DNA of 56,826 nucleotides, counting the filler, from Sphacelaria rigidula (taxonomy: Eukaryota), in NCBI GenBank assembly GCA_964200075.2. It is 5 parts of 5 records of this genome, joined end to end, with 100 filler letters (N's around TTAATTAATTAA, not from the genome) between each part and the next. Parts side by side here need not be neighbours in the genome. Positions count along the whole stretch, not along the records: positions 45,543 to 56,826 come from CAXNAA020005114.1; 4 more parts are not named here. One strand, written 5' to 3'. The notes beneath the pieces are model-generated. The model saw only the letters and a program-made list of their open reading frames with translations, did not search any database and had not been told where the DNA came from. Position 1 is the first letter of the stretch; every line of letters begins with the position of its first letter. The position numbers and the translations under genes are program-made. Positions 32,050 through 55,590 of this stretch are shown in pieces.

Positions 32050-33060
32050 GCGACAGCTCGTTCACGAAAAATGAAAAAGAAACGTCGTAGCGCCGGTTTT
32101 TCGGATGCCGGAATGGAGACTACTCGAAAATTTGACGTGGATCCCGTCGGACCTCCGAAAAACGGTGAAAACATCAACAAGTATGAAAATATCGTCCGTA
32201 GAAAGTTGCGTAATGACACATAGCATTTTCGTGGAAAGTTTCAGGATCTAACTCCTGATAAGGGCGTGAAGGTTTGCGCGTCGTGGAGGACGTGGGCTTG
32301 AAACCTGCAACTCCTAACTACTTGGTTTTAGTACGTAAACGCATTTTGGGTGAATATTGCGTTAAGGCAAGAAAACTGTATAAAGTTTCCAAGTTCATCC
32401 GCCAAACGTCGTACATGTGTTCCTTGGACTATCCTGGGACGCGTTACTTTTTTTTTTAATTTTTTGGGGCATTCTGTACCGCCTCCCGGGGGTCTTCATA
32501 CTGGGACCCCCGGAGGCCGGTACAGAACGGAGAAACCATGAAATATTGTCACAAAAACAGCTTTTCTACTTTGAGCATCAATATCTACGGAACTGCCAAG
32601 TTTGAGGGCGATTTGAGCTTTTCTACACTGATGGATAGAGGAGACACCGTCAAGAGGCTCCCTGGGTCTTTCGTGCATATCACTAGTGGAAATTAGACGA
32701 AGCCAACACCCGACATCACCGAAACATCACGGTTTCGGGTATAATTGGACCCTCGTAGTAACCGTTTTCAAATATGTTTTTCCCGTTAAATTCTCGAACC
32801 GATGACGGTTACTATGATCGGAAGCATGTGGAGATTGGGTTAAAATGAGGCTTGGAATTCGTAATTTCGATCTCGGAACAGTTTGACGGGCGCTGATTGG
32901 TCGATATACCTCTTCGCCCTTAGCGCTACCACCATGGCTATACACATGAATCCGGCAATGTCATGCTCTTCAGCTGTCCATGGCGGTCAGTATGATATCA
33001 TGTATGCGACTATTGGGGAGGTATCACGAAAGGCATTTGATGATGACACAATTTTGGGTT
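32050..33060 (-). repeat. Dispersed non-coding repeat family, copy A (inverted relative to copies B and C)
   Basis: Reverse complement shares CCAATAGTCGCAT..ATCATA.TGACCGC, ACCAATCAGCGCCC, AATCTCCACATGCT, GTAACCGTCATC and AAACGGTTACTACG with 44985-45360 and 50830-52200. Ends approximate. Confidence 0.8.
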
Positions 33061-34058
33061 ATGAGCGTGAACCAGCCTGTACCCACCGGACAAAACTCCG
33101 GGCGGGACGGCAAGTGGTTTCATACGCTGTAATAAAATAGCACAAAACGCACGAAATGGCGCTACTACGAGTACTGCACGGTGCTGTCGTTACCCACGCT
33201 CTATTTGTGTGGCTATCTTCCATTTCCATTTTTTCAGTTTTCCCACCCCACACAGACCAATCGTCCACATCAACGCCCACATGCCAACTTCTCAACAGAA
33301 GCACGCTCACCGGTACCCAATCCACTGTCTGGAGGAAAAGACAAACTTAGGTGTATGCGTACGTCCGGCATCACTAGACGCCTCGAACTGCTCATGTCCC
33401 GCCATGTAGTAAGCGGTGCCGTTCCCCCAAAAGGTCTGTCTCCTTTCACGTGTACTGTGTAGTGCTGCTCCTTCCACCCATCTACAACATTATCGGACGT
33501 GCACGGCTGGCTTACTGTAGCGTAATACGGTGGTTGTGTTCAGCACCAGAAAGTGAATAAACGCATGCCGAGGCAAACCAACAAGAGGGGCAAAAGTAAT
33601 AATGCATCACACCGAAACTAAATGCCAACACCGCGCAACCTTTACGGACCAAAAGCTAGGAGGAAACTATACTATATGCCTGACCTTTCAAGCGCTTGCG
33701 AGAACTACAAGTGCGACCAAACGCAGACGAGCACCCTGCACAGCCCAGCAGCCCCAAAAACGCAATGCCGTGGCGAAAAAAAAATGGGGCACAGAGTTGC
33801 ATAGAGCAAAAGCGTCTCCCTCATGCTTTTTCCAGTTCAGCAGGCAAAATCCAGCGCCGAGGGCAAAGGTCGCGCTGTCCACTGCGAAACTATATTTGAA
33901 TCTTCACCGCTGGTTGTTTTGCACATCAAATTCAGAGTGTAACAACAAATTGTGCGAATTCAGGTTTAATTCCGAGACGAGGTTCAAGCCTAAAACAGTG
34001 CTTGAGGGGGGTAATATCAGGGAAAATGACGGTTTCGGTCAGCGCTGTAAGCTCACAG

Positions 34059-34158
34059 NNNNNNNNNNNNNNNNNNNNNNNNNNNNNNNNNNNNNNNNNN
34101 NNTTAATTAATTAANNNNNNNNNNNNNNNNNNNNNNNNNNNNNNNNNNNNNNNNNNNN
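34059..34158. other. Artificial contig linker N44-TTAATTAATTAA-N44
   Basis: Identical 100 bp spacer. Confidence 0.99.
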
Positions 34159-34263
34159 GGGCATGTTGTGAGAAAAAATCCTAGATTGCTCCAGGAATTG
34201 AACCCCACTTCTCCACCACCAGAAGGTTTCGAGCTTACCAACTGAGCCACCGGGTCGACCGGC
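34159..34263 (-). mobile_element. tRNA-derived SINE 5' head, truncated by contig end
   Basis: Minus strand has Pol III A-box TGGCTCAGTTGG (34238-34249) and B-box GGTTCAATTCC (34194-34204) without a pairing acceptor stem. Confidence 0.7.
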
Positions 34264-34756
34264 TGTGTGAAGAAAAAAACGTTATCCGAAACAACAACAA
34301 CTGCTGCTGCTGCTGCTGCTGCTGCTGTCCAGTTGCTGCAGTTACTGCTGTAGATGTTTTTATTTCATACGTGAGGTTTCGCGAACACAAGGCTCCCAAA
34401 AAATAAACGGTATGCATGGAGTGTAATATATTTACATATATATCTGAAACTCTTCACTGCACTAGTATTACTTGATTAGAGCCTATCATCCCACCATTTT
34501 GTCGTTAATCCATTGGCGGGTCGTTTTCAAAAAGCTGTCCTCACAGATTGTTTTGTCTGTCTTTTTTTCAGAACAAATCTCGACGACGTGTTAGCAACTA
34601 CAGTAGTTGTTGATTGGTGACTTGGTTGGCCACTAATTTTGGGAAAACAATCTCCAGCGCACGATGACCAAGGGCAATTGCGTCCCTCCAAAATTCACTG
34701 CTTCCGCTACGCGCAAAACTATAACGTTGAAAACAAATCTGAAAAATCTGCGTGGA

Positions 34757-34858
34757 CCCTTCAACCGCCAGGATAGGCCATTGCTGAATTGGCATCATTT
34801 TCATGAAAAAAAATAGTAGCAAAACCCCCGGGTGATCCATATCCCGTCGGTCAAAGGG
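34757..34858. mobile_element. piggyBac-type MITE (diverged relative of 20443-20539)
   Basis: CCCTT...AAGGG ends. Core GAATTGGCATCATTTTCA is the reverse complement of the family core TGAAA.TGATGCCAATTC. TSD degenerate (CTAA on the right). Confidence 0.65.
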
Positions 34859-35842
34859 CTAACCCATAAGACTCGGAGCTTTACCTCGGAACAGTTTCAC
34901 CGGCTGACAGTCCAGGGACATGTGGGGGTTTCAACGTAGCGGAGGGGAAGGCTTTCGAGTGCCTCTTCGCAGAACAAAGGGAAGCTAACGAAGTCAACCA
35001 TGTGTGTTCAGGAGTTTCCCGTGGAAAATTCTAAGGCGGGAATAAGGGCCGAGAGGAGGGAAGCGACCACTGTGTTAGTTTTGATTGGTCGATTTGGTAA
35101 CTGTGGTCCCCTACAGATGATCTACAGCGATGATGACCTACGACCTACCTGGCATCGAAGCTGTATTTGACCATCCGGGTAACGATCAGTCAACCATAGA
35201 AAAAGATGGACTCAAGACGTGATCTTTGCCCTGCTCGTAGTCTTTGCCCCCTGCATAGCACCTCTTGTGCTGTCAATATAGCATAACACTGTCCATACTG
35301 CTGTTGTCGAACACTGAGAAGAGATAACAGCAGGGTGAAGCAGACTGTGTTCCGTGGACAGCGTTGCCACGCTGACTGTTCCGTACCTTTGTATTCAGCC
35401 GCTGATTGTGACAAGTTTTTATGTACGGTAGAGTATGCGACGTGTGTGCAAGATCAAAACACTCTTCAGATGGTGTGCCAGCCCTGCCCCCAGAGTACCA
35501 GGACTGCTGCGAAAGCGCAGATAGGAGGAGAAGATACATATTGTTTGCATACGTCGCAGAGGGGATGCTTGCCAATATGCATCATCTGCGAAGGATGAAC
35601 TCATGTCGCCCATTTCATATACAGTACTGGGACGTGACTTGTGTCTCAAAGTCGGCCAGGGTTTCAGGGTTTCGATTGGACGAATTCCTATACAGACATG
35701 TCCATGCACCCAATATACACATGTCCATGCAGAAAGGCGTTTTGTCTCTTGAAAAAGAAGCTGTTTGGAACCCTAGGTGTGCCTTGGGTCATTTTCTGAG
35801 ATTATCTGCAGGGAGGTCGCACCCTAATAAAATGAGGGTAAG

Positions 35843-35953
35843 CCATTTGACCACCAGGGTAGGTTGCCTGGGCCAGGCCGTAATTTTTCAAGTGAACATG
35901 CATGATGTACAAAAGATTCAACGGATGACCTACCTACCCTGGTAGTCGACGGG
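35843..35953. mobile_element. piggyBac-type MITE (diverged)
   Basis: CCATTTGACCACCAGGGTAGGT ... ACCTACCCTGGTAGTCGACGGG|TCAA inverted ends, similar to the 36205 copy. Confidence 0.55.
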
Positions 35954-36204
35954 TCAATAATGGAGTAAGAAGGGGGGCTGGAAGAAATACTGTTGATGGA
36001 AAATTGCTCCCAACAACCAAACAAATACGTTGTAGTGGACCGTATACTTGTGATGACAATACGATACTAGTTATACTAGTTTTCCTTTCGACACATCATA
36101 GATATCTATAAAACGACTCGATTTCTCGAAGCCCGAAACGGATTTCATTTTTCCCCTACTTCGCTGTTCGTCCGGAGTACGAGCTGCGGTAATACATGAC
36201 TTGA

Positions 36205-36310
36205 CCCTTTGACCACAAGGACAGGTCATGTGAGTATTCCCGTACTTGTACATTTTTTGGGTGAAAATGATGCCAATTCAACACATGACCTACCCTTGCG
36301 GCCAAAAAGG
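36205..36310. mobile_element. piggyBac-type MITE
   Basis: TTGA|CCCTTTGACCACAAGGACAGGTCATGTG ... CACATGACCTACCCTTGCGGCCAAAAAGG|TGAA, with the shared core TGAAAATGATGCCAATTCAACA. Confidence 0.7.
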
Positions 36311-37987
36311 TGAACTTGTGATTAGAATTACTATATCTTTGGGACATTGCAGCGCGTTGTTCCAATGGTCAGCAAATGTACAACGCACACCATACCTCCA
36401 GGGCAATCCGCAGGGCGGCGGCCTCAAGCACATGCCTAGGGTGGTCGCTACTCGCAGCCATCCTCCCGTTCAAAGGTGCCCAGGATGATTCTGAATCTAG
36501 ACTTCACCTGACCCCAGCACCAGACACCAGACATCAGACACCACTTGGGCAAGAGGCCTTGTAGGAAAGTTCATTCAGGAACGTCATAGAATGATCTTTG
36601 TATGCATGGATGTAGCATTGTCGCTCATGTTCGCTGTGACTCGACAACTTTCTGCGTGATGACAGTCCCACAAGAGAAGGCCAAAGACAGACTGTATGTC
36701 TACTACCCCTCATGTGTTTGATCCTTCCGAGTCATCTGCATATCCCTTCGGGGTCCTAACAGCCCGCCTCGAAGTGTATAATGAGCGCCGGTGGTATCTC
36801 TCACCTCAGTAAAGTTCTTTGAGGGCATTTGTCTACGGATGCGCCCATTTTTTTTTTTGCAATCGGGGGCCAAACCCGAGGCAGGAGGACACAACCAGAA
36901 AAATAGCCGGTGTACGCATTCGGTTGTTCATTCCGCTTCTGACATGCAACTGTTCTGTACGGTATATCTGTCGACCGTAGGTCGTTTACTCAGTGCAGTG
37001 TGTGTTCCGCTCGATGTCCGGCTGCTACAGTACAGTGCAGTAAATTATGCCGTGCAAGCACTGTACCCCCGAGAACGCACTTGAGAACAGAAGAGGGCGT
37101 GGGCAGACCACGACACTTGAGAACAACCATCAAACCAACCACACCGTATTTTTTGCTCGGGACTTTTTGCATGAAAAAACTGTCGTGATGAAGACCGGAG
37201 GCAGAGATTTGGCTCCGACGTCACTACGGTTGAGAACAGCGGGATGACATTTTATTTGCATTTTTGATGTTCTGTTTTTCTTCGAGGGCAAACACTCCAT
37301 TGGCATGCATATTATCGTGCTCTTCGGCCCGATAGTTTGGAAAGCTTGCTTGCATGCAGGAGTAAAAGCCTTGGTCTAGAGGGTTCCTAAGATATCTGAA
37401 TATCTCACATAGTATCGTAGTTACTTTCTATAAATCACGCTACGCAGCTGTCATGCCGTCACTGAAAATTCATCATAGTCACATACCAATGAGATACTTA
37501 TATTCAGCCGTAAAAAATAAGAAATGAGATAGATGACCGATCGCATGCAAAAAACTCGATCAACCATTAGGAAAAAGTCGAAGAGCGTAAAAATATTTAG
37601 CGCTGTCTGTACTCCAGTGTGGTCAAATTTTGATCTTCCAACAAGTTCACACATCTTCGTATGAAAAACGATACTAATTTCAAGTATACCCCAAAATACG
37701 ACCACCCCGTGTTGCCGCATCAGCTGAACCGAGAGCCTTCACAACAAAACTGCCTGCCCCCCCCCCACCACGCTTCCACAGGGGTGTGTGAAGCCCAGCA
37801 CCTACATACCCGTAGTACCCGGACGGGGCCAAGGGGTGTAGAGAGAATCCCTTGCTCCCACACCGGCGCCATCGAGTGCAGGCTGGCAGATAAAGTGGGG
37901 TATATTCGTGTGTACCGTTGGACGGGCTAGGGCATACAGCAAAATCACCAGAACAGACCGCAGCAGAACTGGAGAACCAGCACCAGC

Positions 37988-40874
37988 ATGTCTCTCCCAA
38001 GCTTTAGAGATGTGTTTCGAAACATCTCGTTCCAAGGTGAACCTGCGAAAGGCGCAAGGGCAGGGGCTATACCACGTAGGGAAAGAGCGAATTCAATGAG
38101 TGCACTCACCAAGGGCTGTGTTAATGTCGTAGAGGAAAGGCCGGTCCGCGGGAGAGAAGAGCGCAGGCAGCAGGCTGGTGGGCAACGCAGGCGAAGGCAC
38201 GACTTCGAAATGGACTCTGACAACTCGTGGGACTCCCCAGCACCCAGCACCCACAGCGCTTTTTCCGAGGCGAGTGGTTCGACGGCCGCCGGGGCGGACG
38301 CCAGTACCGGGGGCTGGAACGGTAGTAGTTCTTCCCATGATGGGAGCGAGTGTACATGGGACGGGACGGGAGATCCCGATGGGCACAGCCTTATCGCCAC
38401 ACCAAATGGAAGCGGCAGCTCGAACGGTAGCACTTACAATAGCCAGAAACGTGCCCGCTTCGCTTCCTCACGGTCACTCAGCATGCGTGCCGGCGGTGGC
38501 AACGGCGGCGGGCGCGGGAGTGGGGTGGGAGGAGAGGTAAAAGACAGGACTGGCCTGGTGCGCTCGAAGTCCGTGTTGGAGTCTGGCTTCCCCCAGCACT
38601 CGCAGTCGCATTCCACAGAGGAGTGGCGGGCCGTCCAAAAGGCGGCGAGGGTGCTAGGCGTTGACTCTTTAGAAGAGCGGGATGTAGAGGATCGGCAACG
38701 TTTTTCAACGCGGAAAGCTGCTCAGGTGCTGGGCGTGGAGAACGTGGAAGAGGTGAGAGAGATGCAGGAGACCGCCACTGGACGCCAGAAATGGGCGCCG
38801 CCGAGGAGCAGTGCTTCGAAAGCGGCGCGCATGTTGGGTGTAGAGGATGTGTCGGTTTTGGAGGAACCGGCGACGGGAAGGGGCAGGCGTAGTAAGTCGT
38901 CCTCTCGACATCAGAGGTCGTCATCCGTGCCAAAGGACGGGAGAACGAAGGCTCCTGGCATCTCGAGCCTCATCCGAGCACTCGAGATTGGGGGTGCTCC
39001 TCAGCACCATGCAAGTGCAGGAGACGGTGGGAAGGAGGGAAGCGGAGGGGAGATGGGCAGCAGTCCTCACAGTTACGCCACGCGCCGCACGGAATCCTGC
39101 AGCAGCGCCAGTGATGTCACGATAGCTGATCGTGAGACTGACGGCACGTCGATTACACCAGGCTCCTTGGGGAGCAACAGCAGCAGCGGTAGCAGCAGCG
39201 CAGCGGCGGCGGCAGCGGCGGCGGCGGCGGCGGCTCACGTCATGAGTAGGTACACCCCGGAGCCGGCGGACGATCAGATAGCGGGCCTGCAGACACCGGC
39301 ACAGAGAGCGGCGGCCGAGGCCGGCGCCAGCGGCAGCTACACTCGCAGTCGCGATGACATGGAGGTTGAGACGCCCCCGGCGCAACCTCGCTCCGCTGCC
39401 CTCGCGTCTCTCACGCACTCGCCGGCACCCTTGCACGCGCCGTACATTCTCTCTGGGTCGGGTGCCAACCGCCTCCCGCGTTCGCCACAGGGACCGGGTC
39501 CTTCGCCGTCTGGGTCGCCGCTTGCCTCGGCCCGCCTACCGCCGTACGGTATGATGTCTGGAGCGCCGCCAAACACGGTTGGTATGCGGTGTGCACCCGG
39601 TTTCTCTGTCGGCAACGGGACCACAAGCGGCAGCGACGGGGATCGCTCTACACCTCCTTCGCCGCTAGTCCTCTCGGAAGGGAAAGATGATTTCGGTGAG
39701 GATGGGGCGGCAGCGGATGAGAAAACGTCGCCTGCTAGGCGGATGGAGAGGGAGGCAATCGGGGACAGGCTGGACCGAGGCCTGGGTTGGGCCAGGCCTG
39801 CCTCTGCCCCGATACCATCCCAGGCAAGCGCTGATTGTGACTCAAGTCCTACTGCCGCTGCTGCTGCTGCTGCCGTGGCTGCTGCGCGCGAGCGTGCATC
39901 GAGATCCATGCGCGACGAGGCCAGGAAGAATATGACGACGCAATCTATGCCGCTACCATCGCCGATCGAGCCGACCGCGGGGTGGAGAAGAGGGTGGTCG
40001 GCTTCGGCTTCGCCAGCGTTTGCTGTCGCGGGTGCCAAAGAAACGCCTCATCAGGTGCGCAGCGGCTCTGACCACCGAGTCAGGAGCGAGAGAGGTGGTG
40101 AGGAGTACAAGCCGTGCATGGAGTACAAGCCGTGCATGGAGTACAAGCAGGAGGCTCCCATGGCACCAGCGATTGGTGGGGAGTGCTTCGTGGCACCGGC
40201 GCGAACATCCTCCCGAGAAGTTTCGAGAGGCCATGAGTACACCGGGTACGGTCACGCGATCGCATGGGGTTCGGCACACGAAACGCCTGCTGCAGAGTTC
40301 AAGCACGAGTCCAACGGCCCGGCGCCGGGAGACTGGCATGCCCCACCGGCCCGACCTTCGTCGGCGCCGATTCCAGGAGCCCCACAACAGCGGCCGCGAC
40401 CTCAACCGCCATACACCGACCGCTACTCACCGGGCGTGCTCGTGGAGCCCCCCCATCCCATGGTAGTGTCATCGGCCCCCACAGCCGCCTTCTCCATGGG
40501 CGTCGGCGGGGGTGGGGTTGCCGTTGGAGGAGGCGTTCCTCCAGCCCATGAAAGTTCTGGAAGCGGTGGCAGCGGCAGCGGCAGCGGGGGTAGCGGATCG
40601 GGCAAGGGGTCCTATTCGGCACTGGCGGCCTTGATTCCGTTTGTAAGCCCTCCAAACCCGATGGGTATTGGGTCGTCGCCCCCCGTGCCCGTAGGTTTGC
40701 CGCTGGTCAAGCAGAAAGACGTGTGTATTGTGCCCCAAGCGGCAGCTGTGGGGCCCGCAACCAAGTCCAAGTCACGACGGCGATCGACTCCCAAGGGCGG
40801 GCAGATCATGGTGGAAAATGCGGCCGTGGTGACTCCCGTGGATACTTCGCCGGTGCCAACTGTCCCGCCTGAGG
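37988..40874 (+). CDS. Large first coding exon (~962 codons) of an unknown, largely disordered Ser/Gly/Ala/Pro-rich protein; 3'-partial
   Basis: Uninterrupted 2.9 kb ORF from ATG with GC-rich coding-like composition, ending at a consensus donor GAGG|GTAAGT. Three KAAxxLGV repeats. No recognisable folded domain; downstream exons not established. Confidence 0.8.
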
Positions 40875-43699
40875 GTAAGTGATACTATGCAGTGCTGTCG
40901 TGTCGTCTTTCCGATCATGGGGTCTGCTCGATTCGTGCCGATTCATCTTATCGTAAAGTCTTGCGAACATACCCACATATCTAGCTCGGTTGGAGATGTG
41001 TGGTGACACTTCTGTGTTATTATTGAGGAATCTTCATTCTTTGATGCTTCGCTCGACATGAGGTTCCAAAAGGTGCGGCTAGGGTTTCGAAGTGGTCATT
41101 ATTCACCCTTTCGGCACACACGGGCGTCTCGGGATGCGGTGTTTGTTCAGCCCATTGCCGCCTTTTCCTATTTCCTGGATGATTTTGGACTAATTCAACA
41201 CAGTCTCTGGGGCTGAACACTTATCATCTACACGGAAATAAACGCGTAGGCCATCTTGAAATAAAATGTTCCCAAATGAAGCGGGGGGTGGGAGGAACCT
41301 CCACGTTATTCGGTGCCACTGTGCCATGTGACACTTTAACGTTGCAAATCTGGAAATAGAGGAACTTCACGCCTCGCACAAAAAAATTCAAGGGAAAATA
41401 GTCTGATGCTATTTGACGCACATAGCAGTGTCAGCTCCTCGCACAAGCTCAGCCATAACTTCATTAACCCCCGCTCCCACGACATTATATGAACCCTGCC
41501 TCACTTAACTTCTGTCCCATCTACTCCGTATTCTGTAAAGGGGACGCATCACACCGCTACCAGCTGTAATCAGCAGCCTAGTGATGCTCGGCAGCCAAAT
41601 GCCATGGATCCCCCCATTTTTGTAACAAGTGTGTATCAGATTTGTTCAAAATCTGCTGTTTCCAGCCGTTGGAAGAATGTTCCTCTCATTTTTTTTTGTA
41701 AAGAGCACGGCGCCGAGTCGTCCCCGCTGTGTCCACTTTTGTTACTTATCGACCTCCGTTTGAGTAGCTGTCAATTTCCACCACGGAGGGTTGGGGGCGA
41801 GTCAAACGGTCACCCCGCTGTCATCGAAGTGCGTTTCGTCACTCATGTTGGAACCGATTTTCGATATAGGCTTATTTCGCCAGTTGCATTACTATCGTGA
41901 ACCGTAGCCTTTATGAGCTCAAAAGTATGTTCCTTTGCCTACCAAGGACGATTTTACACCTTGCGCTCGTGGGGGTCGGTCCGCACCAAAAATGTCTTGT
42001 TCCAGATGCCCACTCTCCCTGTGGGAGTTCATGGTACCACTGCGCACATCATCACTAGCGCACGTGATCGATGGTCTGTGTCGCACTACTGTATGATAAA
42101 GTGTGGATCCAGCCATATGGTCGATAGTTTAACTGCCGTCTGATGACTTGTGTAGGAAAGTATCAGGGGCTAACTTCTGGGTATTATTATCTTGCCCGGC
42201 CATTCAAATGTTGAAAGTTGGCGCTCACGGAGTGATTGACTCAGCCGAAGGAGGACGGAGCACTAAGTATCATGATGCAATATGAAGCAACTGCTTTCGT
42301 TTTTGTCCCAGCGTAGTCAAGCGGTAAACGCCGAAATTCTCATTCGCAACACCCTTCTTATCTCACCCCCGCCCTCCCACCGTCTCCCTGTCGACCCCCC
42401 CCTCCTGCTCGTGACGGGTCCGTAGTCTCATGGGATCAGCTGATCTCCCCGCTGGTACCTGCCTGATTTTTTTCCCGGGTTTTGAGACGGCAATCTCGCA
42501 GCCAACACGATAAATTGTTTCTGTCGGCGTTGGGACCCACTACTCAACCCCCCAAGGATCCGATGATTCTCTAGTTTGATCATCGGACCCGGCGACTCTG
42601 TAACGTCTTGTTTATAACGATGTTTTGTTGTATTCCTGAGGGACATTTTTTTCTCAGGTCAGCGCCCCCCCCCCCGTCGCCCTTTGGCTTTCTCGTCGAC
42701 TAGCGGTGTTGAGCCAGTTTTCGGAGATATCCTAGCCTAGACATTCACTTTTCGTTTTGAGCCAACCGTTCTGGCGCCCTCGGCCAACGTGCAAATGTAA
42801 CAATCCCGCCGATTCTTGGAAGATGGCAATGATGTACGCGTAGATGGCCGGTAGTTGGCCGTCCTGGCGCTTCACAAACTTTTGTTTCGAGCTGGAAGTA
42901 TTGACCGATAGGATAAAGTAACAGTCTCGACACTGCCAAGGGAGGATTTTTTTCCAGGGCTGTGTCTCCTAATACGGCCTAGCAGCATACAGCCGCTGAC
43001 CGAAGCAGGGGTTTGTGGGAAGGACAAAGTTGCCACTATGTTTCCACGCTCATATTTTGCTTGTGTGTCTCAATTTGTGATTGTCCTGCTCAACTGTCTG
43101 TTGACCGGGCTGGGGAAATTTCTGTTAACCCCAACGCACCGGTACGCGCCGCCTGCGCCACGAGCTCTCCCCGGCAAACATGATGAGTGCACCAGCTGCT
43201 CAACAACGTTTCAACAGTTGCTTTGTGTGGGACCCAATGCGTGTACAATCCGTCGGCGCAATTGCGGCTGCTCTGTTAAACTGCTTTGAAATTGTGAGAC
43301 GGGCCCCGGCTCGTGTACGAATGGCTGTAATATGTACGACGCCGGGCATTAGTATGCCAACGTTTTTTTCTTCTGTTTTTTTTCTGCTGTAGGGATTGGG
43401 AACAGCACGGCACGTTACATACTCTCTCGCAATACGGGCTTCCCTGGGCGCTGTGTCGGTGCTCCAGTTTTCGAGTTGGGGTTTGTTGATGTGAAGCACA
43501 TACATGTTGGTAGTCGTGGAGACAAAGAATCTCTCGTTGATGATCAGCAAGCAATCCTTTATTCAATTAAAACCTTCTTCCTTGATTTAACCCAGGCAAG
43601 CCACAGTTACGGAACTTCAAGAAAATCACAAACCGGGTTGATGGAATTATGGGATACCAGGAGTGTGACGGGCGAGGAGACCGGGATTACGGATTCTCG

Positions 43700-44040
43700 G
43701 GAACCTTGAGAACATGCTTTCCACACGTAGTTTTCCCATCAGAAATCACCATTCGGACTCCCGGTTATTGAAGACAAAAATATCGGTTGGTTTGCGTAGC
43801 GCTACAAGGGTCAAAACATGCGTCCAGACCAGACAAACACGATAAGATGTCGCGAAACGGGATTACGGAATGTCGGGAATCTTGAGATCGTGCTTTTCAC
43901 ACGTGATTTCCCCAGCAGGAACGATTATCCGAACCCTCGAGTGTGAAAGAAAAACACACTGGTTGGTTTGCGTAGCGCTAGAAGGGTCAAGCTACGCGTC
44001 TAGACCAGACAAAAACGGTAATATGTCGCAAAACGTCGAC
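43700..44040. repeat. Diverged tandem duplication, ~177 bp unit
   Basis: GGTTGGTTTGCGTAGCGCTA.AAGGGTCAA...GCGTC.AGACCAGACAAA occurs twice (near 43786 and 43961). Confidence 0.8.
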
Positions 44041-44984
44041 GCCTGGCCCGTGGGTTTTAGGGCGTTCACTTCTGAGCATCACGCTGTCGACTGTGCGTGT
44101 CGATGTATATTAGCCCGGGGAAATGCGTGATGCCACGCCCTGAGCGTCTTCCGAGGCCCGCATTACGGTACCATCACGCATGAGGTTGTATGGATACGGT
44201 ATCAGAACCTGTGTCGGAATTTTGCGGCCTGGAATTGACCGCCGCTCTAAGTCATAGTTTGACATGATTATTCTTGTCTCAGTCTACGGTCTGTTCCACC
44301 TTTCTGTTTAGTTTATTCTTATTCTGCGAGTGTTTGCGTTTTGACTCCAGTCTGACACTGCCTGCTGGAACCCCGGATATCTGGCGGAGCCTGCCCCCCC
44401 CTAAGACCGCGTCCATACAGCCTTTCTAAATATCTCAGAGGACTTGTGTTCAAAATTGCAGGGTTTACCTCGAAAAGAGGGCATCAAGGATCACCCTCAC
44501 GTGCGTTGAAGTATACCACAATACGTGGTACCGACGTTTTCGTTCTGCGCTTGAGCACAGATGGACCGTTTGCGATCAGCTTTTCGAGTTACGCAACGAA
44601 ACTTTGTACACGCGTTCCTTGAACTATATCGGGACGAGTCATGTTAGATGCTGTTTTTGAAGTAATCTGTACTGGCTTCTGGGGTTCCTCATGCTAGGAC
44701 GGACCCCTGGAAGCCGGCAGAGGACGGATAGTATTTGAAGTATTCTCCACGGGTTTTTTCCCCCGTTCGTAGCATCCAATCTATCAAACTGCCAAGTTTA
44801 AGGATGATCGGAGCACTTGTAAGAAAGTCACGAGTCAAAATGGGAGGAGGCTTTATGGGTCTTCAATGCATGATGACAGTGAAAATCCGACGATGCCAAA
44901 CCCCACATCACCGGATTACCACGTTTCGGGGATCAACTCGATCTCGCACTAACCGTTTTTGAACACGAGCTGGTTCACGGTAAA

Positions 44985-45358
44985 CACCCAAAATTGTGTC
45001 ATCAACAAATGCCGTCCGCAATACGCACCCAATAGTCGCATATATGGTATCATATTGACCGCAATGAAGAGACGGAGGGTGACATAGCCGGATTTTCGTT
45101 TTAAGGCCGTAGCGGTGGCGCTATGGACGAAAATTCGTCTCAACCAATCAGCGCCCTTCAATCTGTTCGGAGATCGAAATTACGAATTCCAAGCCCAATT
45201 TCACTCAATCTCCACATGCTTCCGTAGTAACCGTCATCGGCACGGGAATCTAACGAGAAAAACATATTTTTAAAACGGTTACTACGGGGGTTGAATTATA
45301 CCCGAAACCGTGATGTTTCGGTGATGTTGGGTGTTGGCGTCGTCTAATTTCCACTAAT

Positions 45359-45360
<2 letters not shown>
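44985..45360 (+). repeat. Dispersed repeat family, copy B
   Basis: Shares the motifs listed for copy A. Confidence 0.8.

Positions 45361-45431
<71 letters not shown>
45360..45431. repeat. (ATT)n microsatellite near contig end
   Basis: Near-perfect trinucleotide run. Confidence 0.95.
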
Positions 45432-45433
<2 letters not shown>

Positions 45434-45442
45434 CCATCACAT

Positions 45443-45542
45443 NNNNNNNNNNNNNNNNNNNNNNNNNNNNNNNNNNNNNNNNNNNNTTAATTAATTAANN
45501 NNNNNNNNNNNNNNNNNNNNNNNNNNNNNNNNNNNNNNNNNN
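45443..45542. other. Artificial contig linker N44-TTAATTAATTAA-N44
   Basis: Identical 100 bp spacer. Confidence 0.99.
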
Positions 45543-46231
45543 CCCCCCCCCCCCCCCCCCCTCCGTCCGAAAAGTCCCATTTTCACCGTCGATCTTCCTC
45601 TCACCAAATTTCCTGAATGAGTCTAAAGTTTTGCCGAAACGGGTTTCATGGGTCTCAGTGATGGACGAGAGATAAACGGGCCTTGCCTGTTATGTACGTG
45701 AAGTATCAGGGCAAAATAATCCTACTCTACAAGTTTTGGGTGTTTTATTTCGTGGAAGGAGGTGCGTTTTTGTGTTGGAGAGTCCATTCTGACGGCACAT
45801 GCTCCGCCTACATCTGCAGTATAGCCCATCGGACGCAACAGTCGGGTTTGCGCAAATAGCACTCTGTCTGATCCGGCTTGTCGTGATGAGCTGGGGCATG
45901 TTGTGTTTTGTCAGGCATGCGAGCTGGGTACGTGAGTGGGATGAGAGTAAGTGGACCGTCCCTTTTTCATGTTGTTCTCTCCGTAAAGAACTAGAGATGG
46001 GACGGTCCACGCGTCCAGTATATAACCATGGTCACAGACACGGGTCAACCGTTCCGGTGGTACACAGTACGTGACTGCGGAGTGCTTTCACGTGGTATCC
46101 GCTTACATGACCCGTCGATCACGAACTGATGCGTACTTACTTTTTCGCCTGCTCTTCACGTCAATTGTCTCACCACCACCACCACCACCACCACCATCAC
46201 CATCATCATCATCATCATCAACGACAAACAG

Positions 46232-49200
46232 GCATTACGGGCCGAAAAAGTAAAGCCTCCTTACCCAAAACAAATCCCGCTAGATAACGTGGCCAAATTC
46301 TCCCGACTCCTACCGAAGACCCACATATTCGAGAAACATAAGGCGCGATCGGAGTCTCTGCCCGCTGCAACGTCACCCCCAACAGCAACAACCAGAGCAG
46401 CAGCAGCACGTGGCTCTCCTTCTGCAGTCAACAGTGACATGTCTCATGCCGGGGATCCCAAACTTGCCTCTTCGAGGACGAGCACGGGCAACTACACTGA
46501 GGGCGATTCGTCTGTGGGCGGTCCACATGCGGGAAAAGTAACCAAGCAAAGTGGACGGGGACGTAGCGATGAGACATCCGGACCGGTGTATTCAGGCAGC
46601 AGGGGCATACCCGCGAGCGGCAAGGAAGCTGTTTCCAATCTTTCGTCAAAGGGTAAGAAAGGAGATGCTTCCGGAAGCGCGGGACATGCAGTAAACCCTT
46701 CATTTCGACAGGATAGCACGTGCGTTGCTAGAGAGTGCTGGTTCGTCGTCGATGGACGATCTTCGGATCGGTCCTTTGCTGTTTGCGGAGCAAAGTGGGA
46801 TGTCATCTTTTCGGGATACGAGTGGGGGGGGAGGGTGTAGTCATGACATTGAATGCCGTAGTCATATGACCATGGATACGGGGGGTGGGGGGCGTAGTCG
46901 TCGTAGTCATATGACCATGGAAGTCTTCTGATTGGAAATGTGTTGGCACGCTTATACAAGTGATTTGTGCGCATCTGTCAATGCTTGTGATCTGGGTTAA
47001 GGACTGGTTTCACGATTGTTTGTTTTGCTTTCTTGTTTGTAGGGCAACTAACTGTGCGACCCTACCGCACCTCACACGCCGCAAGGAGACTCGAACTCTC
47101 AGGGTGAGTTCATTTGAGAGAAGACGAGGGATTCTGATGCGTCATTTTGGTTGTCGCCTCTTGGCACAGTGAAGGAAGCTTTTCCATGGTTGGCGTGATG
47201 TGAACTCTTGCGATAAACTTGAAACGTTACAGGGATTGACACGAAACAGCGCGATTCAGACTCTATGGTGGCTGCTGTGGGACACTACGGCCCGGGGGCG
47301 CGGGGGATGTTCACGTCGACGGACGATATAGGCAGGGCGGATATGATGAGGGCGAATCAACGACATCAGATGGTCATCGAAAGGCGGGCAAAACGAGGAG
47401 GCGAGTCTTGGTCGGTGGACGGAATTTTTGAGCCGTTTTTTTTTTTTTTTTAATTTTTATGTCCGCCTCGCTGCATGAACCTTCGGTACTTTTCGTGACC
47501 ACTCTCATCGCCCAGCCCCTTGATCGCAAAGCTTGTCGTCGTGGGTACGTGTGGGTAAATAAATCAAAGGAGGTGCTCTTGGATATGATGTGCAAACGAT
47601 TTCATTTTTTTTCATTTTCCCCTTTCTTTCTTTCTTTCTTTCTTTCCAACTTCATGCTTGGGTGAGTCACGCTACGGTAGGGGTTGCACGGGTGGGCCCG
47701 AATCTTTCTCGTGCAGGGTTTAGGAACTACACAAGAATGCAGGTCAGGATAATTCCGTTCGAAAATTCATTCAGGATATCCCTAGCCCGTTAGACTACCA
47801 GTCGGCGCATCCTCTCACATATTCCACAGGACGCTTATTTGGATGAGATGCAAGGCTCCTACAAAATTGAACCTCGGAAAATATTTCACGATTCGGAAGG
47901 ATCATCGCCGATTCGAACCACCAAATCCACGAGTTTTCAGGCCTGATTGCTCAACAAAGATAAAACAAAGTTGACCGCTCGTCGAAAAGGTCTCCACGCA
48001 ATTTTTGCGCCCATTCCACGTGCCTGGGCTGCGCGTACCCGGGTTGCAACGCTGAACACAAAAGCATAAGGACTGATTCGTACGGTACGAATCAATCACG
48101 TTAAAATCAAGTGATTTCCAGGCGAATCAGTAATCCCGACCCTTGAAATATTTTGTGCACCCCTCACGTAGCACCAGTCGGGTCATGTTTTTGATTTTTG
48201 CATCCGGACTAGGCCGTAGCCTCGGAGGTTCAATCCATCGCTTGCCCCGTTCCGTCCCGTGTATTCCGTCGTGGAGCATTGGATAATCGCTGTCAACACG
48301 TCCGCGGACCGTCTTTTTTTTTTTAAATCTGTTGAGCACTCTTTTCTAACAGGCTGATGTTCCTGTGAGTTCGGTTGAGCGGTGGCGGCATTCGAATCCA
48401 CGACCTTCACCCAAGCGAGTCCTGGTGTCTCTCAGTTTGATCGTTTGTTTTGCTTCACAGCGAAGCTGTTCTCGAAGGGCAGCTGTGCTTCCTTTTTTTA
48501 GAGCATGTGTCGTTGATACGTTGTTTCCACGGTTACTTGAAATAGTTGTATTGTCGGGGTGGTCCGGGTGTTTGCCCCATGAATGTCGTGATTTTTGTTT
48601 CACGTTATCTCCAGCAGACGCCTTTGGAACCCAGCAGCAGTCCGCCTATTCCATCCCACTCGCGGCTAATTGTGCATGTGCATGTGCGTGGTATTTGGTC
48701 ACAACCCACCCGGTTTGCTTCCAGGACTCCGTTGTATGACTAATCTTGAGCGTGCTGGCCCTGAGGGCGAGGGTTGGGCGAAGACTCCCATTTCTCCCAT
48801 TACATGTTCTTGTGCGGAGTTGCTGTGCGGCCGTCGGACTGCCGTCATTTCTTACCTTGACATGGAAATTGTTTTATGAAGAGGACGGAAACACGGTAAA
48901 TGCAAGCGTTCATCTGCAGACCTTTCACTTCGTCACATCTTGCAGTGATCGTACGCGAACGAGTTGGCGTCATGATTCAAAATGAATGAATGTTCATTGG
49001 TCGCTCTGTGGTAGGGTTCGTGACAGCGGCGGTGACGTGTAAGAAGAGACAAGCGGCGATAACTACTGTCCTCCACTGGTTTACGTACCTTTTGCGGGTA
49101 TTTGTCTTCTCAACCCTTCCTCATTGTTTCCCTAGCTGCACCGTGTCTACCGTCGAGTAGAATGCTGTCTACCTTTTGCGATGCAACGGTTTGTGTCAAA

Positions 49201-52200
49201 CGGAAACCCCCTGTCCGTCCCTCGAGAAATCAACAGCTGTCGGCACGATGTCCAGAGCATGCCGACGCCGTACCCACGTTTAGTGTCTTGTCCTTATATT
49301 CGTTAGCTGGTGCACGGGAAGTAAATAAGCTGCCATAGTGAGAAGACTCTGGCTTTCTACATCTTCGTCGAGACGAATTTCAGATTTACGAGAAGCGGCA
49401 GCCCATGAGATCGACCGCGTCGTTCTGGCCTTCGGCGCCCGAAGTGTGACCGGTCATGTTGAAACGTCCACACATTCTCGGGCCGTGCCGAATTTCCGTT
49501 CCTGATGTAACTCTCGTCGACAGGGCGGGCGTTGGATCACAATCTCACCCCCGTTGCGCGCATCATAAAGGAGTACGCCGGGACAGGACCGTACAGCCTG
49601 TTGCATCGCTTGCATGCGGAGAAGCGGAGGGCCTGCGTCATGATCCGGCGTGTCAATAGGTGATCATCCAGCATGTACTCTCAGAAGCGCGGCCAGTCTT
49701 GTGTGCGTCAGGCCGCAGAAACAATCACAGAGATTAACTGAAAATCTTGTGCACATGAACTGTAGCAGTCTTGTGTGAGATGCGCTATTACCACATGGGA
49801 ATTTTTCATGTGTGTGTTTGCAAGAAGATTTCTCATTTGTTTTTGCTTTGTTTCCTGCAAGTGGCGTCGTGATTTAAAACCACAACCGCTACACTCAGAG
49901 GCACGCTCTGAGATGCATTGTTAAGCAATGGAGGTGTAGCTGGTACTGTTTGAAACCTGGAGATTGCCGGTGTCTGACGATGATCATCGTGAGTTCCAGG
50001 AAATGGTGTCGCGCTCTTGGAGCATGACTAAAGACGAGCACCACAACCAGGGTGCCAGTTCTGCGAAATTGTTTTGCACAGATATTTCCGGGCTAGCGTG
50101 TGGAGCCCGTTTTCTTCGAAATCCTGATACGAGTAAAAAAAGTTCAGTGTTCTGTTTCCCAGCCATTTTTGTGAGATCTGACCGTTTGAAGTTGACAACT
50201 GTAGAAGTTGACTATTACAGCAGCAGCACGGTGCACTGTCAGATGGTCGAATGCAAGTTGAGATCAATAACTCGTGTTCGAGTTTTAAGATAATGGATAT
50301 TATTTCCTTGTCCGTTGGGTTCATACCCATCACAAGCTGCCGGAATTATAGGACTGAAACGATGATGACATATTTCGTACCAAAAGCCAGGAATTCTCCA
50401 AATCCTCCGTCACGAACAGTACGAATGGTGGACATACACACATTACTCGAGCGCAAAACCGTCCTCTCCATAGCGGGTAGCTATTTAAGCACTCGACTCG
50501 TCCTCCGGGTCAAATTTCCGCTTCATGTCGGAGCATCGGTTTCAATATTGGGCGAGGAAGACGGCGAATATTACCTCTTGTAGTTTGGAAATTTAGCGTC
50601 CGCACGGAAGTCTCGAGCACATCTCCTTCACCCTATTTTCTTTTTAATCAGATCTGTTAGGCTATGTTGCTATTTTTCGCTGTCGCTTGTTGCGAAGGTG
50701 CCGATATCTGGTATAATTTCCCATCAAAATTCATCCGAAATGGAGCGTTTGCGAATCACCAAGGAATGCTGCAATTTCAATTACTGTACTCGCGCAGTGG
50801 TGATCGCCTACAGGCTGGTTCACGCTTTTCACCCCAAATTGTGTCACAAGCTAATGCCCTTTCGCAATACTCATCCAATAGTCGCATGATATCATACTGA
50901 CCGCCATGGGCAGCTGAAAAGAGTTGACACAGACGGATTTGTGTTTAAGGCCATAGTGGTACCGCTATAGACGAAAATGTACTCCGACCAATCAGCGCCC
51001 CTCAAATTGTTCTGAAATCGAAAGTAAAAAATCCAATATTCGCATGATATCATACTGACCGCCATGGACAGCTGAAGAGATTGGCATAGCCGGATTTATG
51101 CTTATGGCCATAGGGAAAGCGTTATAGACGAAAATGTACCTCGATCAATCAGCGCCCTTTAAATTGTTCTGAAATCGAAAGTGAAAACGCCAAGCCCAAT
51201 TCTCACCTAATCTCCACATGCTCCAAATTGTCGTAACCGTCATCAGCGCGGGAATCTGACGGGAAAAAAACTACGTTGAAACGGTTACTACGGCGTCGAA
51301 TTTTACCTGAAACCGTGGCGTTTCGGTGATGTGGGGTTTTGGCATCGTCAAATTTCCAGCCATGATGCGCACGAAAGACCCAGGGAGCCTCGTGGCGGTT
51401 TCCCTTATATCTGTCGTAAAAAAGCTGAGATCGCCCTCAAACTTGGCAGTTCTGTAGGCATTAATGCTGTAAATGAACAAACTGTCCTCCTTGACAACAG
51501 TTCAAGGTTTCTTCGTTCTGCACAGGCTTTCGGGGGTCCCAGTGTGAAGACTCGAAAGGTGGTACAGAACGTCTCAAAAGAAGAAAAATGAAATGATGCG
51601 GCCCGGGGTAGTCTGAGGAATATTCTTACAAAGTTTGGTCGAGAAACTCGAAATCTCATACAGTTTTTCTCGCCTTGACGTTAATTACACCCCAAAAATA
51701 CGTTTTCATGCTAAACCCAAGTATTTAGGAGTTTGCACGTTTCAAGCTCACGTCATCGCACGAACGCGCAAAACGTCACGCCGTATTTAGGAGTTAGACC
51801 CTGAAAATTTGCACATAACCTTACACACGTTTTCCCGCGTTAACGTTAAATACACCCAACAAAGATATGAAAATCAAGCATCTGGGAGTTTGCACGTTTC
51901 AAGCTCACGTCATCGAACAAACGCGCGAAACTTCGCGCCGGTTTTGGGAGTTAGACCCTGAAACTTTGCACAAATGTGCTATGGGTCATTGAGAAACTTT
52001 CGAGGCCCGAGTATTTTCTTTTACTCTTTGACTTTTCCCATCGTTTTTCGGGGGTCCAACGGGATACAGATTTCCCCCCAAACCCTGGGAGCCCCTAAAA
52101 ACAGTAGGAAAAGTCGAAGAGTGAAGGAAAACACTCGATCCTCGAATTTTGCGTTATGGCCCATAGCAAAGGTGTGCAAAATTTCAGCGCCTACCTCCTG

Positions 52201-54010
52201 AAAAAGGCGTGAAGTTTTGCGGATCAGTGTTCGAAGGTTGATAGGCGTGAACTAGCCTGTTCTGTTGTTTCCGATCTGCTGCCATGGGTATCTATACTGC
52301 CTCCGCTCCCCCACCTCCCAGGAAGAGATTGCCAGCAATCGTTGATAGGGCTGTATGGAAGGAAATGACGAAGCGGCAACCTGAAATAAGGTGGAATAGA
52401 GTAGTCGAGAAAGTATCGAACGAGATACAAAGGAATCAAGAGGAGATAATGTTCATAGGTGAAGGCGGAGGGTACAAAAAAAAGTAAGAGTCGTGGTAGA
52501 AATACGGAAAAAAGAAGCGCCAAAACGGAAAGATGAGGAACAACACCAGGGTGCACGGCGGGTTGATAGAGGGGGTAGGGATGAAAATATATCTGTATGG
52601 CCCAGTGGACTCCGTGAAAAATTGAAGGTGTGATTTCGGGTGGGGAACCTGCACCTGCCAGAAACGAAAACGAGATACATTAATTTACTGGACTCCTAAA
52701 CTATGTATATATATATTTATATGTGGTGAATTTTTGAAAATGTTACTCAGTATGAATTGGCGCGAAATCTATAATTTCGCCGTAATTCTGGAGGGAAGAT
52801 GGCATGCATTCGACCGTGAGTAGAGGGATGCCGTAGCCTGAGGGAAGATACCACGTGATAGATCTGATAGACCTTGTCGCGGGGCAGCTGCGAAGCGTTG
52901 CCGACAGGGAAAAGGCGACCGTGTCTTCGAGCACGGTGTCGTGAACGTACTCAAAGAAGACATGGCGAAGCTCCTGCGGCAAGCAACAAATGAGTATGCC
53001 CCCCCCCGAACGACTAAGGCAAGCAACAAATGAGTACGCCCCCCCCCCTCCCCCCCCGCCCCCAACGCACTCACCATTTCCATTCGTCCTGCATCAGCGT
53101 TCGAGGCGTGTGCACGGGACTGATACGAGGCTTCGACAAGCACATGAACATTCTCTTGGCCGACGTAAGGGAGGACTACACAACGTCGGTGCCGGCACAC
53201 CCGCCGAAATCTCAACAAAAATCATCGCCATCACCGCCAGGTCGTGCGTCGAACCCTCCCTTGAGAGATCGCCATCACACACCGGGAGCCGTTGGGTCTA
53301 ACGCTGGCGCTGACATCGGGAAAAAATCGGAACCATCGCGGTTTCTTGCACAGGATGCTCATGATCTGAAGAGTGCACCTGGCCTCCATGTTCCCGTCAG
53401 GGATGGTTCACGTTTACTCGAGGATGGTTGTGCCACAGCTGGGTGTGGAATAGCGGTGATGCGTGAAGAACATGAAAGTGAGGTGGGTCTTGCTAAGCTG
53501 ACTGAGGAGGGGCACCCGCGGCGGGGACGTGAAGTCGTCAGAGGAGACGGGAAGGACGGCAGGAGAGGGGAAGAGGGTGTTGGGATGGGGTCTGACATTG
53601 GGGCGTGTTCTGGTGATGTTGATGGGAAGCGGGGCACTGCTGACGACAAGGATTGCGCGACTACGGCGCGAAAACCATCAAGTGGAGTTGTGAGTATTGA
53701 GGGTATCACCACCGATGGTTCAGGGCGAGAACAATTACAAAGCGGCGGCGGGGAAGGCAGGACAGGAGCCGAAGGTCGCACCGGTGATGGTGGCGGTAGT
53801 CGTGATTGTGGTGGCGGCGATAGCCTCAGGACCGTTGAGATGGAGAGGAAAAGTCCTCCTCAAAGGCGCGCGAAGTCTGGGGGAAGACGTAGTCGACATA
53901 AGGGGCGGTGGAGAGGGGAACTGGTGGAGGTTAGGCGGACGAGGTACCTGAAGCAGTTGTTGATCCGTGGGGATAACGTTGTGATGGTCTGGCAGGCACC
54001 CAGGGCATGA
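46232..54010 (+). CDS. LSM11: LSm11-like Sm protein, 5'-partial; join(46232..46652,47233..47400,49524..49659,53098..54010), 545 aa
   Basis: Exon phases are consistent (1638 nt in total). N-terminal motif ALRAEKVKPPYPKQIPLDNVAKF. Sm1 region GPYSLLHRL...VMIRRVNS|VRGVCTGLIRGFDKHMNILLADVREDY. ~250 aa low-complexity insert, then Sm2 RYLKQLLIRGDNVVMV. All resemble animal Lsm11 as recalled (PYPNAPCFNNVAEY; LRGVCTGFLVAFDKFWN; QIFIRGENV). Exon 47233-47400 is the least certain (GC donor). Confidence 0.85.
50830..52200 (+). repeat. Dispersed repeat family, copy C (within LSM11 intron), with internal tandem duplications
   Basis: Motifs shared with copies A and B. TCGCATGATATCATACTGACCGCCATGG occurs at ~50882 and ~51040, and GGAGTTTGCACGTTTCAAGCTCACGTCATCG occurs twice. 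Confidence 0.8.
52320..53050 (+). mobile_element. Internally deleted LINE 3' fragment of the contig 2 family, with duplicated 3' terminal motif
   Basis: 52320-52675 aligns with 21592-22025. GGCAAGCAACAAATGAGTA[T/C]GC plus a C-run occurs twice (~52978 and ~53018), matching 22413-22434. Confidence 0.75.
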
Positions 54011-55590
54011 TCGAACAGATGCAGCACGTCAGGAGATGTTAGCACTCGCGCCGGCGACAAACGTGGAGGCTGGTCATGCGTATGGATAGACGAGCAAAAT
54101 TGCTGTTTCCCCGTAAGGACTGTCCGCGTTCTGGCTGCCGCTTCGGCTGCGTATCATTCATGGAAAGTGTGGTTACTCTTAGGTTGCACCACCAGTTGTT
54201 GGACAATTTTGAAGAGACAGCGGCTACAAGTAGCGAGGCGTGCCGTCAGTGTGTACGAGTAACGTTCACTTCCAAGCTTTCTTTGCTACTACCAATACAA
54301 CGGGAATCGAAACCTCTGAATCCACTTCCGGTGGAATCAGAGTTGCCGTTTCACCCGGAACAGTTTTCTGTCGCGGGGGCCACATCGTGAAGTCGGTAGG
54401 GAAGGGTCCAGTACAACTGATGCTGTGGCCAATATAATATATTACAGTACCACACAGTGCTGCTGTACCAAAGTACTGTGTGTACCGCATCGTATATTAC
54501 TCAGTGTACACCACTACTGTCTGGGGTTATGCGGTAGTTTGCTGTCTGTAGATGATGTTATTTATCACTCATACCACAATGACAAAAATAGTGGGTACGA
54601 TATCAAACAGGCGGCAAGGCAGCGGCGGATCCTGCCAGTCGTGTCATGAACCTTGACCCGCGCATGCATCAAAGCACGAAGCAGAATACTTAATCAGCAC
54701 GGATTATGCTCTGTTATATTTCCGAGGGTACCAGGCTCAATGTTCCTTCTGCAACTCGCCCGACAGCGTGGCGGATTCATTTGAGGAATATTTCAATCCT
54801 TGATATCGCTATTGCTCTTCTTTCAGGTTCGGCATAACGTATCGTTCTAGTGTCCAATACTCGTAGGGCCAACCACTCTAAATTTAAACCTCCTCCGCAA
54901 CACCACTCGTATTATCCCTTTGACCGCTATGGTAGGTGATATGCTGAATCAGCATCAGTTACACATTACGTCCAGGCAAGTTAGTGTTCAATTCATTGAT
55001 GGGACATATCGAACGTCTTACTTTTTAAATGTCAAGTTCTCCGTGGGAAGAAACAATACCAACTTTTACGGGACCCATTTAAGGGTGATTCTACGGTATG
55101 CGTGCACTTTTTGGTTAAAGAGTATTCTGAGGCTGCACACTATGCCCCAGGGTATGCCATCGAGAGGCTACTGAAGTGCAAAACCTGAGAAAAAAGTTGT
55201 GCACCCCTACCTTCGAACACCTCTCAAATAAATAGATGCGCCTGACTTTGAACACCACGTGAAAACCACGTTAAAAACATGTTCGTGAGATGAGGAACGG
55301 ATTTTCTTTTAAGGACGGTCATTTTTCGTGGTTTACACCAAGATGCGATCGAATCGTCCGAAACGGCCGTCACCTCCCTGAAAGCCCGTGACCCGACGGA
55401 AATTTTGTGCCAAACTACTTCAAATCGACGTGGTCAGAGCTACTATAGAGAGCCCGATAGAGAGGTATCCTCAGTCACGGATTGCCCTCTTTAGCGGTGT
55501 AAAAACCGTTTGGAACGAATCCATGCCTTTTTAGCGGCATTCTACCGTTCTATCGGAACGGCGGTGATTTGCCGCTATATCGGAATAGCG

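Follow-up and report, generated by a model that had tools for sequence, protein, structure and literature searches.

In animals, LSm11 is the hallmark of the small RNA particle by which histone messages are trimmed. It occupies the place of SmD2 in the animal U7 ring (PMC7026596), and its N-terminal region is described as binding a dimer of FLASH (PMC5636114). Human Lsm11 carries a loop, residues 207-337, which has been described as unique to Lsm11 (PMC10578488). A helix that contacts CPSF73 has been described as conserved among vertebrates only (PMC12774660). The present analysis concerns a gene of the brown alga Sphacelaria rigidula, found on a stretch of 56,826 nucleotides from GenBank assembly GCA_964200075.2 (the whole stretch is referred to below as the window). 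Judged by sequence comparison, this locus is very probably the Sphacelaria rigidula orthologue of LSm11, not SmD2.

Marz and colleagues present U7-dependent processing as a metazoan innovation (PMC5054213), and according to a 2025 paper Lsm10/11 arose in metazoans (PMC12117405). An October 2026 preprint reports LSM10 and LSM11 homologues as widespread outside animals, including stramenopiles, with the brown alga Ectocarpus as an example (10.64898/2026.10.14.759114). The same preprint describes FLASH as widespread outside metazoans, and its accessible text names a U7-like RNA for Rozella only. It was also the only literature found on brown algae with SLBP and histone stem-loops. LSm11 genes outside animals are already in print and the Sphacelaria locus is a further member, as foreseen by the initial annotation of this DNA, which had cautioned that the protein by itself might already be known. 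Clusters bearing LSM11_N are likewise listed in the Atlas, with Chlorophyta as their commonest phylum.

The Sphacelaria protein shares its order of parts with animal LSm11, namely an N-terminal motif, seen here in its second half, a basic linker, a pre-Sm helix, Sm1, a long loop and Sm2, and the hexamer RGVCTG is common to it and human LSm11. It differs from the human protein in its longer loop, 254 residues against 131 (the human figure from PMC10578488), and in a single, polymorphic GRG where the human protein has an arginine-glycine (RG) cluster. Ochrophyte orthologues additionally bear an N-terminal helical module. SmD2, the closest of the canonical Sm families, shares the Sm fold, but its chains in the PDB contain 94-118 amino acids, have neither the N-terminal motif nor the long loop, and score 41 bits lower with a profile built from ochrophyte proteins. 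Unlike the short SmD2 (ca. 110-120 amino acids), the Sphacelaria protein comprises at least 545 residues, with both the N-terminal motif and the 254-residue loop.

Whole-length collinearity is seen with proteins of Ectocarpus (P0024 and P0165), Scytosiphon (P0026), Phaeothamnion (P0023), Chrysoparadoxa (P0025) and Heterococcus (P0021), with expectation values (E) of 1e-43 to 1e-50 against Ectocarpus and Scytosiphon. A tail of the form RRxSRxxGPWxGE...RFLKQLLIRGDNVVM is common to the ochrophyte LSm11-like proteins and the Sphacelaria protein, while linker and loop sequences are poorly conserved among them. All of these ochrophyte proteins are entered as 'unnamed protein product' in their source. 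In comparison with Ectocarpus, the Sphacelaria record is without the first ca. 150-190 residues.

Gene structure and splicing

The coding parts lie in three stop-to-stop frames of the plus strand. The first, at 46130-46840, contains AL...PPYP...LDNVAKF; the second, at 49511-49663, finishes in ...GPYSLLHRL...MIRRVN; and the coding part of the third, at 53018-54010, opens with SVRGVCTG...FDKHMN and closes with ...LKQLLIRGDNVVMVW. Spliced together, four exons form a frame of 1638 nucleotides, or 545 codons and a stop. The initial annotation had proposed four phase-compatible exons encoding a stop-free protein of 545 amino acids, and the same count was obtained here. The N-terminal AL...PYP...NVA.F motif, the Sm1 with RGVCTG, the long insert and the Sm2 which it had described are all located where it had placed them. 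This model agrees with P0001, a 476-residue 'unnamed protein product' of Sphacelaria rigidula at NCBI, since 476 of the 545 residues can be read exactly from the window, in four blocks. The match also bears out the probable brown alga of the initial annotation, the source being Sphacelaria rigidula or an organism that cannot be told from it at this locus.

Splicing was followed in contigs of four public runs from one study (X1-X4), presumed to be RNA and placed on positions 45543-55500. In each of the four, a single intron-less contig of ca. 2.2 kb joins all four exons, skipping 580, 2123 and 3438 bases; junction support, a check that the initial annotation had proposed, was therefore obtained for all three joints in 4/4 runs. 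The exact exon borders were set from the contig joints together with the dinucleotides at the borders, allowing for ambiguous letters. X1-X4 contained a fraction of 0.14-0.23 of the sampled words, in agreement with the exonic fraction of the stretch queried (0.20), as expected of spliced RNA. The locus is probably expressed and correctly spliced, as read from the contigs of these runs presumed to be RNA. Its features are as follows.

46232-46652 (+): exon A, 421 nucleotides, internal and without a start codon; second half of the LSM11_N-type motif at 46232-46324, GRGR at 46550-46567
46653-47232 (+): intron 1, 580 nucleotides, GT..AG, phase 1, joint in 4/4 runs
47233-47400 (+): exon B, 168 nucleotides, arginine-rich linker
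47401-49523 (+): intron 2, 2123 nucleotides, GC..AG, phase 1, joint in 4/4 runs
49524-49659 (+): exon C, 136 nucleotides, helix before the Sm fold and first Sm1 strands (from 49544)
49660-53097 (+): intron 3, 3438 nucleotides, GT..AG, phase 2, splits Sm1
53098-54010 (+): coding part of exon D, 913 nucleotides including the stop at 54008-54010
to 53182 (+): rest of Sm1, with RGVCTG at 53102-53119
53183-53902 (+): low-complexity loop within exon D
53903-54007 (+): Sm2 block within exon D
54011-54447 (+): 3' untranslated region, ca. 0.4 kb; the joined contigs end at 54373-54447

Exon C aligns to the Sm1 region of human LSm11. The donor of intron 2 is the non-canonical GCGAGT; the joint 47398>49522 has three ambiguous letters and resolves to GC..AG.

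Family assignment

The Pfam family LSM (PF01423) matches the last frame (53018-54007) at 35.5 bits (E 8.3e-9, cut-off 23.4) and P0001 at 34.4 bits; the other two of the three stop-to-stop frames tested match nothing in Pfam. When the last frame was searched against the database, 19 of 5829 candidates reached E <= 0.01, with P0001 ranking first. Two of these 19 first matches, P0011 and P0013, have a precomputed assignment to PF28412, named LSM11_N in the Atlas. The Atlas clusters nearest to P0001 are LSm11 clusters, with scores of 0.88-0.89, which lie below the level at which the tool is to be relied upon.

Among solved structures, human LSm11 (PDB chains 6v4x_D, 8g1u_D and 9nh5_D) is the best match, ahead of SmD2, and the LSm11 homology that the initial annotation had claimed is upheld on this ground. 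With P0001 the scores are 27.1 bits for human LSm11 (1.8e-5) and 23.8 bits for SmD2 (1.7e-4). With P0013, a relative with a whole N-terminus, they are 50 bits (2e-12) and 29.2 bits, respectively, and the alignment of P0013 to LSm11 spans the N-terminal motif through Sm1. The comparison of LSm11 with SmD2 by profile, which had been recommended beforehand, separated the two families more widely. A profile of eight ochrophyte rows (Ectocarpus twice, Phaeothamnion, Scytosiphon, two unnamed JGI proteins, P0001 and exon A) matches human LSm11 at 78.5 bits (6.7e-21) and the best SmD2 at 37.6 bits. On human LSm11 this profile aligns over three collinear stretches, the N-terminal motif (21.8 bits), the pre-Sm helix with Sm1 (52.9 bits) and Sm2 (11.9 bits).

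The locus might instead encode a diverged SmD2 paralogue or some other canonical Sm protein, either of them with a long insert and working in spliceosomal small nuclear ribonucleoproteins, and SmD2 is indeed the second-best family in every PDB search, with only a small gap for P0001 (27.1 versus 23.8 bits). Such an origin is nevertheless very improbable. With the ochrophyte-only profile SmD2 trails LSm11 by 41 bits in total and by 15 bits when the Sm1 stretch is scored separately, the N-terminus of human LSm11 aligns with the N-terminal motif, and the nearest relatives are of the long type. The last point comes from a four-row stramenopile profile run over 1.84 billion representatives, which gave 1190 proteins at E <= 0.001 and 528 at 1e-10. 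The best 150 of these 1190 were listed, all of them long LSm11-like proteins or fragments thereof, and none inspected among these 150 was an SmD2-like protein of ca. 110-120 amino acids. A shorter-protein search with the Sm region of P0011 likewise returned two proteins from three candidates, both LSm11-like fragments and neither SmD2.

Clusters were looked up for 30 of the 150 listed proteins. The organisms named among these 30 are the ochrophytes Ectocarpus, Scytosiphon, Phaeothamnion, Chrysoparadoxa and Heterococcus, together with a fern (Psilotum), a slime mould (Acytostelium), a choanoflagellate (Stephanoeca) and an oyster. The oyster protein P0141, which its source names U7 snRNA-associated Sm-like protein LSm11, is reached by the stramenopile profile at 9.4e-22. 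The spliced Sphacelaria protein is collinear with it, at 45% identity over 53 residues of Sm1, 62% over 16 of Sm2 and 39% over 23 of the N-terminal motif, the last alignment not being significant by itself (E 0.12).

N-terminal motif, loop and allelic variation

The second half of the N-terminal motif (46232-46324) aligns with P0013 at 18 identities in 45 positions (E 4e-7, BLASTP with exon A). In local alignment, the pattern AL...P.P...PLDN(V/I/L)...LLP is common to exon A and its relatives, nine of which are informative and range from oyster to Phaeothamnion; the Ectocarpus row was mis-anchored and disregarded. In these relatives the first half of the motif takes the form L-D/N-F-x-S-x-x-F-D/N-x-L, and in Sphacelaria it would be encoded on a missing exon. 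Searched alone among longer proteins, exon A found only P0001 (1 of 2828 candidates).

Many LSm11-like proteins (P0013, P0020, P0023, P0024, P0025 and others, all outside the window) have an extra helical module at the N-terminus, of the form L..RL..(F/Y)Y....P......KY.G..E..L...L.KKYG. The pattern was found in 28 of 173 stored proteins, and its named carriers are all ochrophytes (Ectocarpus, Phaeothamnion and Chrysoparadoxa). It is not present in the animal, choanoflagellate and dictyostelid rows inspected, and it has no Pfam match; a search of the Atlas with the module of P0024 gave no usable match.

The loop between Sm1 and Sm2 measures 254 residues in Sphacelaria. The corresponding spacing in the relatives is never below 27, and its median is 61.5 (108 of 173 stored proteins, those in which both motifs were found). 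The human protein has an RG cluster, methylated by PRMT5, in its N-terminal extension, and on that model a single GRG at residues 108-110 of the Sphacelaria protein could be a PRMT5 site. A counterpart of that cluster was looked for in the Sphacelaria protein and was not established, one GRG only being found, and neither was a counterpart of the vertebrate CPSF73-contacting helix.

Runs X1-X3 match the window at the positions where X4 differs from it. The X4 contig has 21 differences over 46345-54285, comprising 16 coding ones (6 synonymous and 10 not) and 5 after the stop, pointing to a second allele or strain among the runs of a single study. The N-terminal motif, Sm1 and Sm2 blocks together account for 133 of the 545 codons and contain none of the 16 coding differences; the chance of this is (412/545)^16, ca. 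0.011 or about once in 90. The pattern fits conserved functional blocks set apart by freely evolving linkers.

Contig boundary and the missing 5' end

The window consists of five pieces of 11288, 11285, 11285, 11284 and 11284 bases placed end to end with spacers, each of which is composed of 44 N, a 12-nucleotide word with stops in all frames and a further 44 N. Adjacency across the spacers carries no meaning for genome neighbourhood. The contig of the LSm11 gene itself begins at 45543, and the length on record for the contig that carries P0001 is likewise 11284 bases.

11289-11388: spacer
22674-22773: spacer
34059-34158: spacer
45443-45542: spacer
45543-46231 (+): contig start to acceptor, 3' portion of an intron, with the preceding 5' exon or exons off the contig; ACAG at 46228-46231

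Position 46232 sits directly after this ACAG acceptor, and the same form of acceptor is seen at the other introns of the gene. There is no in-frame ATG upstream of 46232. The joined contigs of X1-X4 extend 175, 164, 165 and 81 bases 5' of this position, and their extra bases are not found within 45543-46231. The contig boundary cuts the gene off on its 5' side, with the start codon and 5' exon or exons not on the contig; the start codon is absent because the contig begins at 45543, leaving the 5' exon or exons off. For the same reason, the public model P0001 begins at the first internal methionine, at 46439, which is residue 70 of the spliced frame. As a consequence of this start (46439 rather than 46232), P0001 leaves out 69 in-frame residues, the LSm11-type motif among them. 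The Ectocarpus orthologues have 152 (P0024) to 193 (P0165) residues ahead of the point where the Sphacelaria protein begins, the sequence of P0165 itself being without an initial methionine. The 'intact-looking' gene of the initial annotation is thus borne out as regards the open frame of 545 codons, but not at its 5' end, where the exon or exons carrying the start codon and the first motif half fall outside the contig.

Searches for an upstream exon gave no result, because the contig that bears the gene reaches back only to 45543. Scanning 38000-46300 for the motif and running tblastn with P0011, P0013 and P0006 over the whole window found none, and of 383 ATG-to-GT candidates in 30000-45442, two passed the motif filter, neither of them convincing. 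A six-residue match at 32850 was rejected as it lies inside a repeat carrying stop codons.

A missing start codon in the window, a public model that begins from an internal methionine and a large intron half made up of repeats might also be expected of a decaying or mis-assembled gene, a truncated copy whose transcripts are noise. This is the least probable of the explanations considered here, and can be nearly dismissed. The absent start is explained by the contig end and the extra 5' bases of the joined contigs, the frame is open over 545 codons and precisely spliced in 4/4 runs, the Ectocarpus orthologues have their 152-193 residues further upstream, and the allelic changes avoid the conserved blocks.

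Introns, repeats and other features of the window

Intron 3 had been described as a TE-filled (transposable element) intron of 3.4 kb that splits Sm1. Its length of 3438 nucleotides and its position within Sm1 hold, and 1659 of its bases match repeats of other window contigs at 70-89% identity, but none of its six open reading frames matches a Pfam family (0/6). It contains tandem duplicates of ca. 157 nucleotides at 50873-51193 and 51713-51972. A non-coding repeat family (70-78% identity) is common to intron 3 and two other contigs, at 32138-33081 and 44787-45361.

Two intronic stretches, 53009-53057 and 48011-48056, reach a summed contig depth of ca. 26,000-34,000 and 600-1100, respectively, in the four runs, and at both many contigs continue into unlike sequence on one side. 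They look like the ends of abundant repeat or low-complexity sequence. A word of ca. 30 nucleotides with a run of C is duplicated at 52979-53008 and 53019-53050.

Elsewhere in the window, other contigs carry the remains of retroelements and a long open frame.

7836-9842 (+): retroelement remains
24992-25660 (-): retroelement remains
37931-40879 (+): open frame of 983 residues, G+C-rich (0.635 at 38001-40000), no Pfam family at E <= 0.001

The retroelement matches are to RVT_1 (1.7e-14), RT_RNaseH (1.6e-21) and, weakly, an integrase core (23.2 bits versus a Pfam cut-off of 32.6).

Proposed function

By extension from the animal system, Sphacelaria LSm11 would stand in for SmD2 in an Sm ring of seven members, next to a partner resembling LSm10, and this ring would assemble on a U7-type small RNA. 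The N-terminal motif would then dock a FLASH-like adaptor, which in turn would bring the CPSF73 cleavage module to histone pre-mRNAs. The initial annotation had put forward a variant Sm ring with an uncharacterised small RNA partner, and by analogy this is a reasonable suggestion. Whether the Sphacelaria protein has a U7-type role in particular appears evenly poised, the argument being one of analogy. Taken as a whole, the statement that the locus is an expressed, spliced, 5'-cut orthologue of LSm11 with such a role is given slight preference. A broader proposal may be offered more tentatively, and falls somewhat short of an even chance. Ochrophytes, brown algae included, may keep a working U7-type particle, in which an LSm10/LSm11 ring on a small RNA yet to be found would be docked through the N-terminal motif to a FLASH-like adaptor, the helical module adding a contact that animals lack.

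Several points weigh against the assignment and the proposed role. Neither the start codon nor the first motif half is seen on this contig, and exon A alone has no match in the PDB at E up to 10. With P0001, which is without the N-terminal motif, the preference for LSm11 over SmD2 is just 3.3 bits, and the separation of the two families was drawn from search scores. The RNA nature of runs X1-X4 is only a guess, as no run listed as containing this sequence is recorded as RNA. The single GRG becomes GRR in the X4 allele, through G110R. The 56.8 kb window contains no histone gene, and an Rfam scan of it gave no matches, a result of little weight. Stramenopile stem-loops are described as lying further downstream of the histone genes and as less conserved (preprint 10.64898/2026.10.14.759114). 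Finally, the ring, the partner RNA and the link to histone messages are carried over from the animal system by analogy.

Some of these observations would also suit a true descendant of LSm11 in which the role in histone 3' end cleavage was lost, or never held, in brown algae. The protein would then be part of an Sm-type ring built on some other small RNA, or would work as an adaptor in RNA surveillance or in another 3' end process. The position of the stramenopile stem-loops further from the stop codon and their lower conservation, as given in the preprint, lend themselves to this explanation, as do the ochrophyte-type helical module (28/173 stored proteins, no Pfam match) and the reported restriction of the conserved CPSF73-contacting helix to vertebrates (PMC12774660). 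Set against this, conservation from oyster to brown algae takes in the FLASH-binding-type motif, the pre-Sm helix and both the Sm1 and the Sm2 block, the conserved blocks are without allelic change, and homologues of LSM10 and FLASH have been reported outside animals (10.64898/2026.10.14.759114). A non-histone function of this kind is accordingly regarded as rather unlikely, although it deserves more serious consideration than either an SmD2 origin or gene decay.

Significance

The locus adds a second order of brown algae with direct splice evidence to the LSm11 genes known outside animals. Sphacelaria retains the motif by which animal LSm11 binds FLASH, and shows no allelic differences within it. 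There is practical value in the corrected gene model, as the public Sphacelaria model, cut at its 5' end, hides this motif. The protein could also serve as bait for a small RNA partner yet to be found, in a lineage with genetic tools (Ectocarpus). If ochrophytes do keep a working U7-type particle, the U7 system would predate the split between stramenopiles and animals, and LSm11 would offer a means of recovering its RNA.

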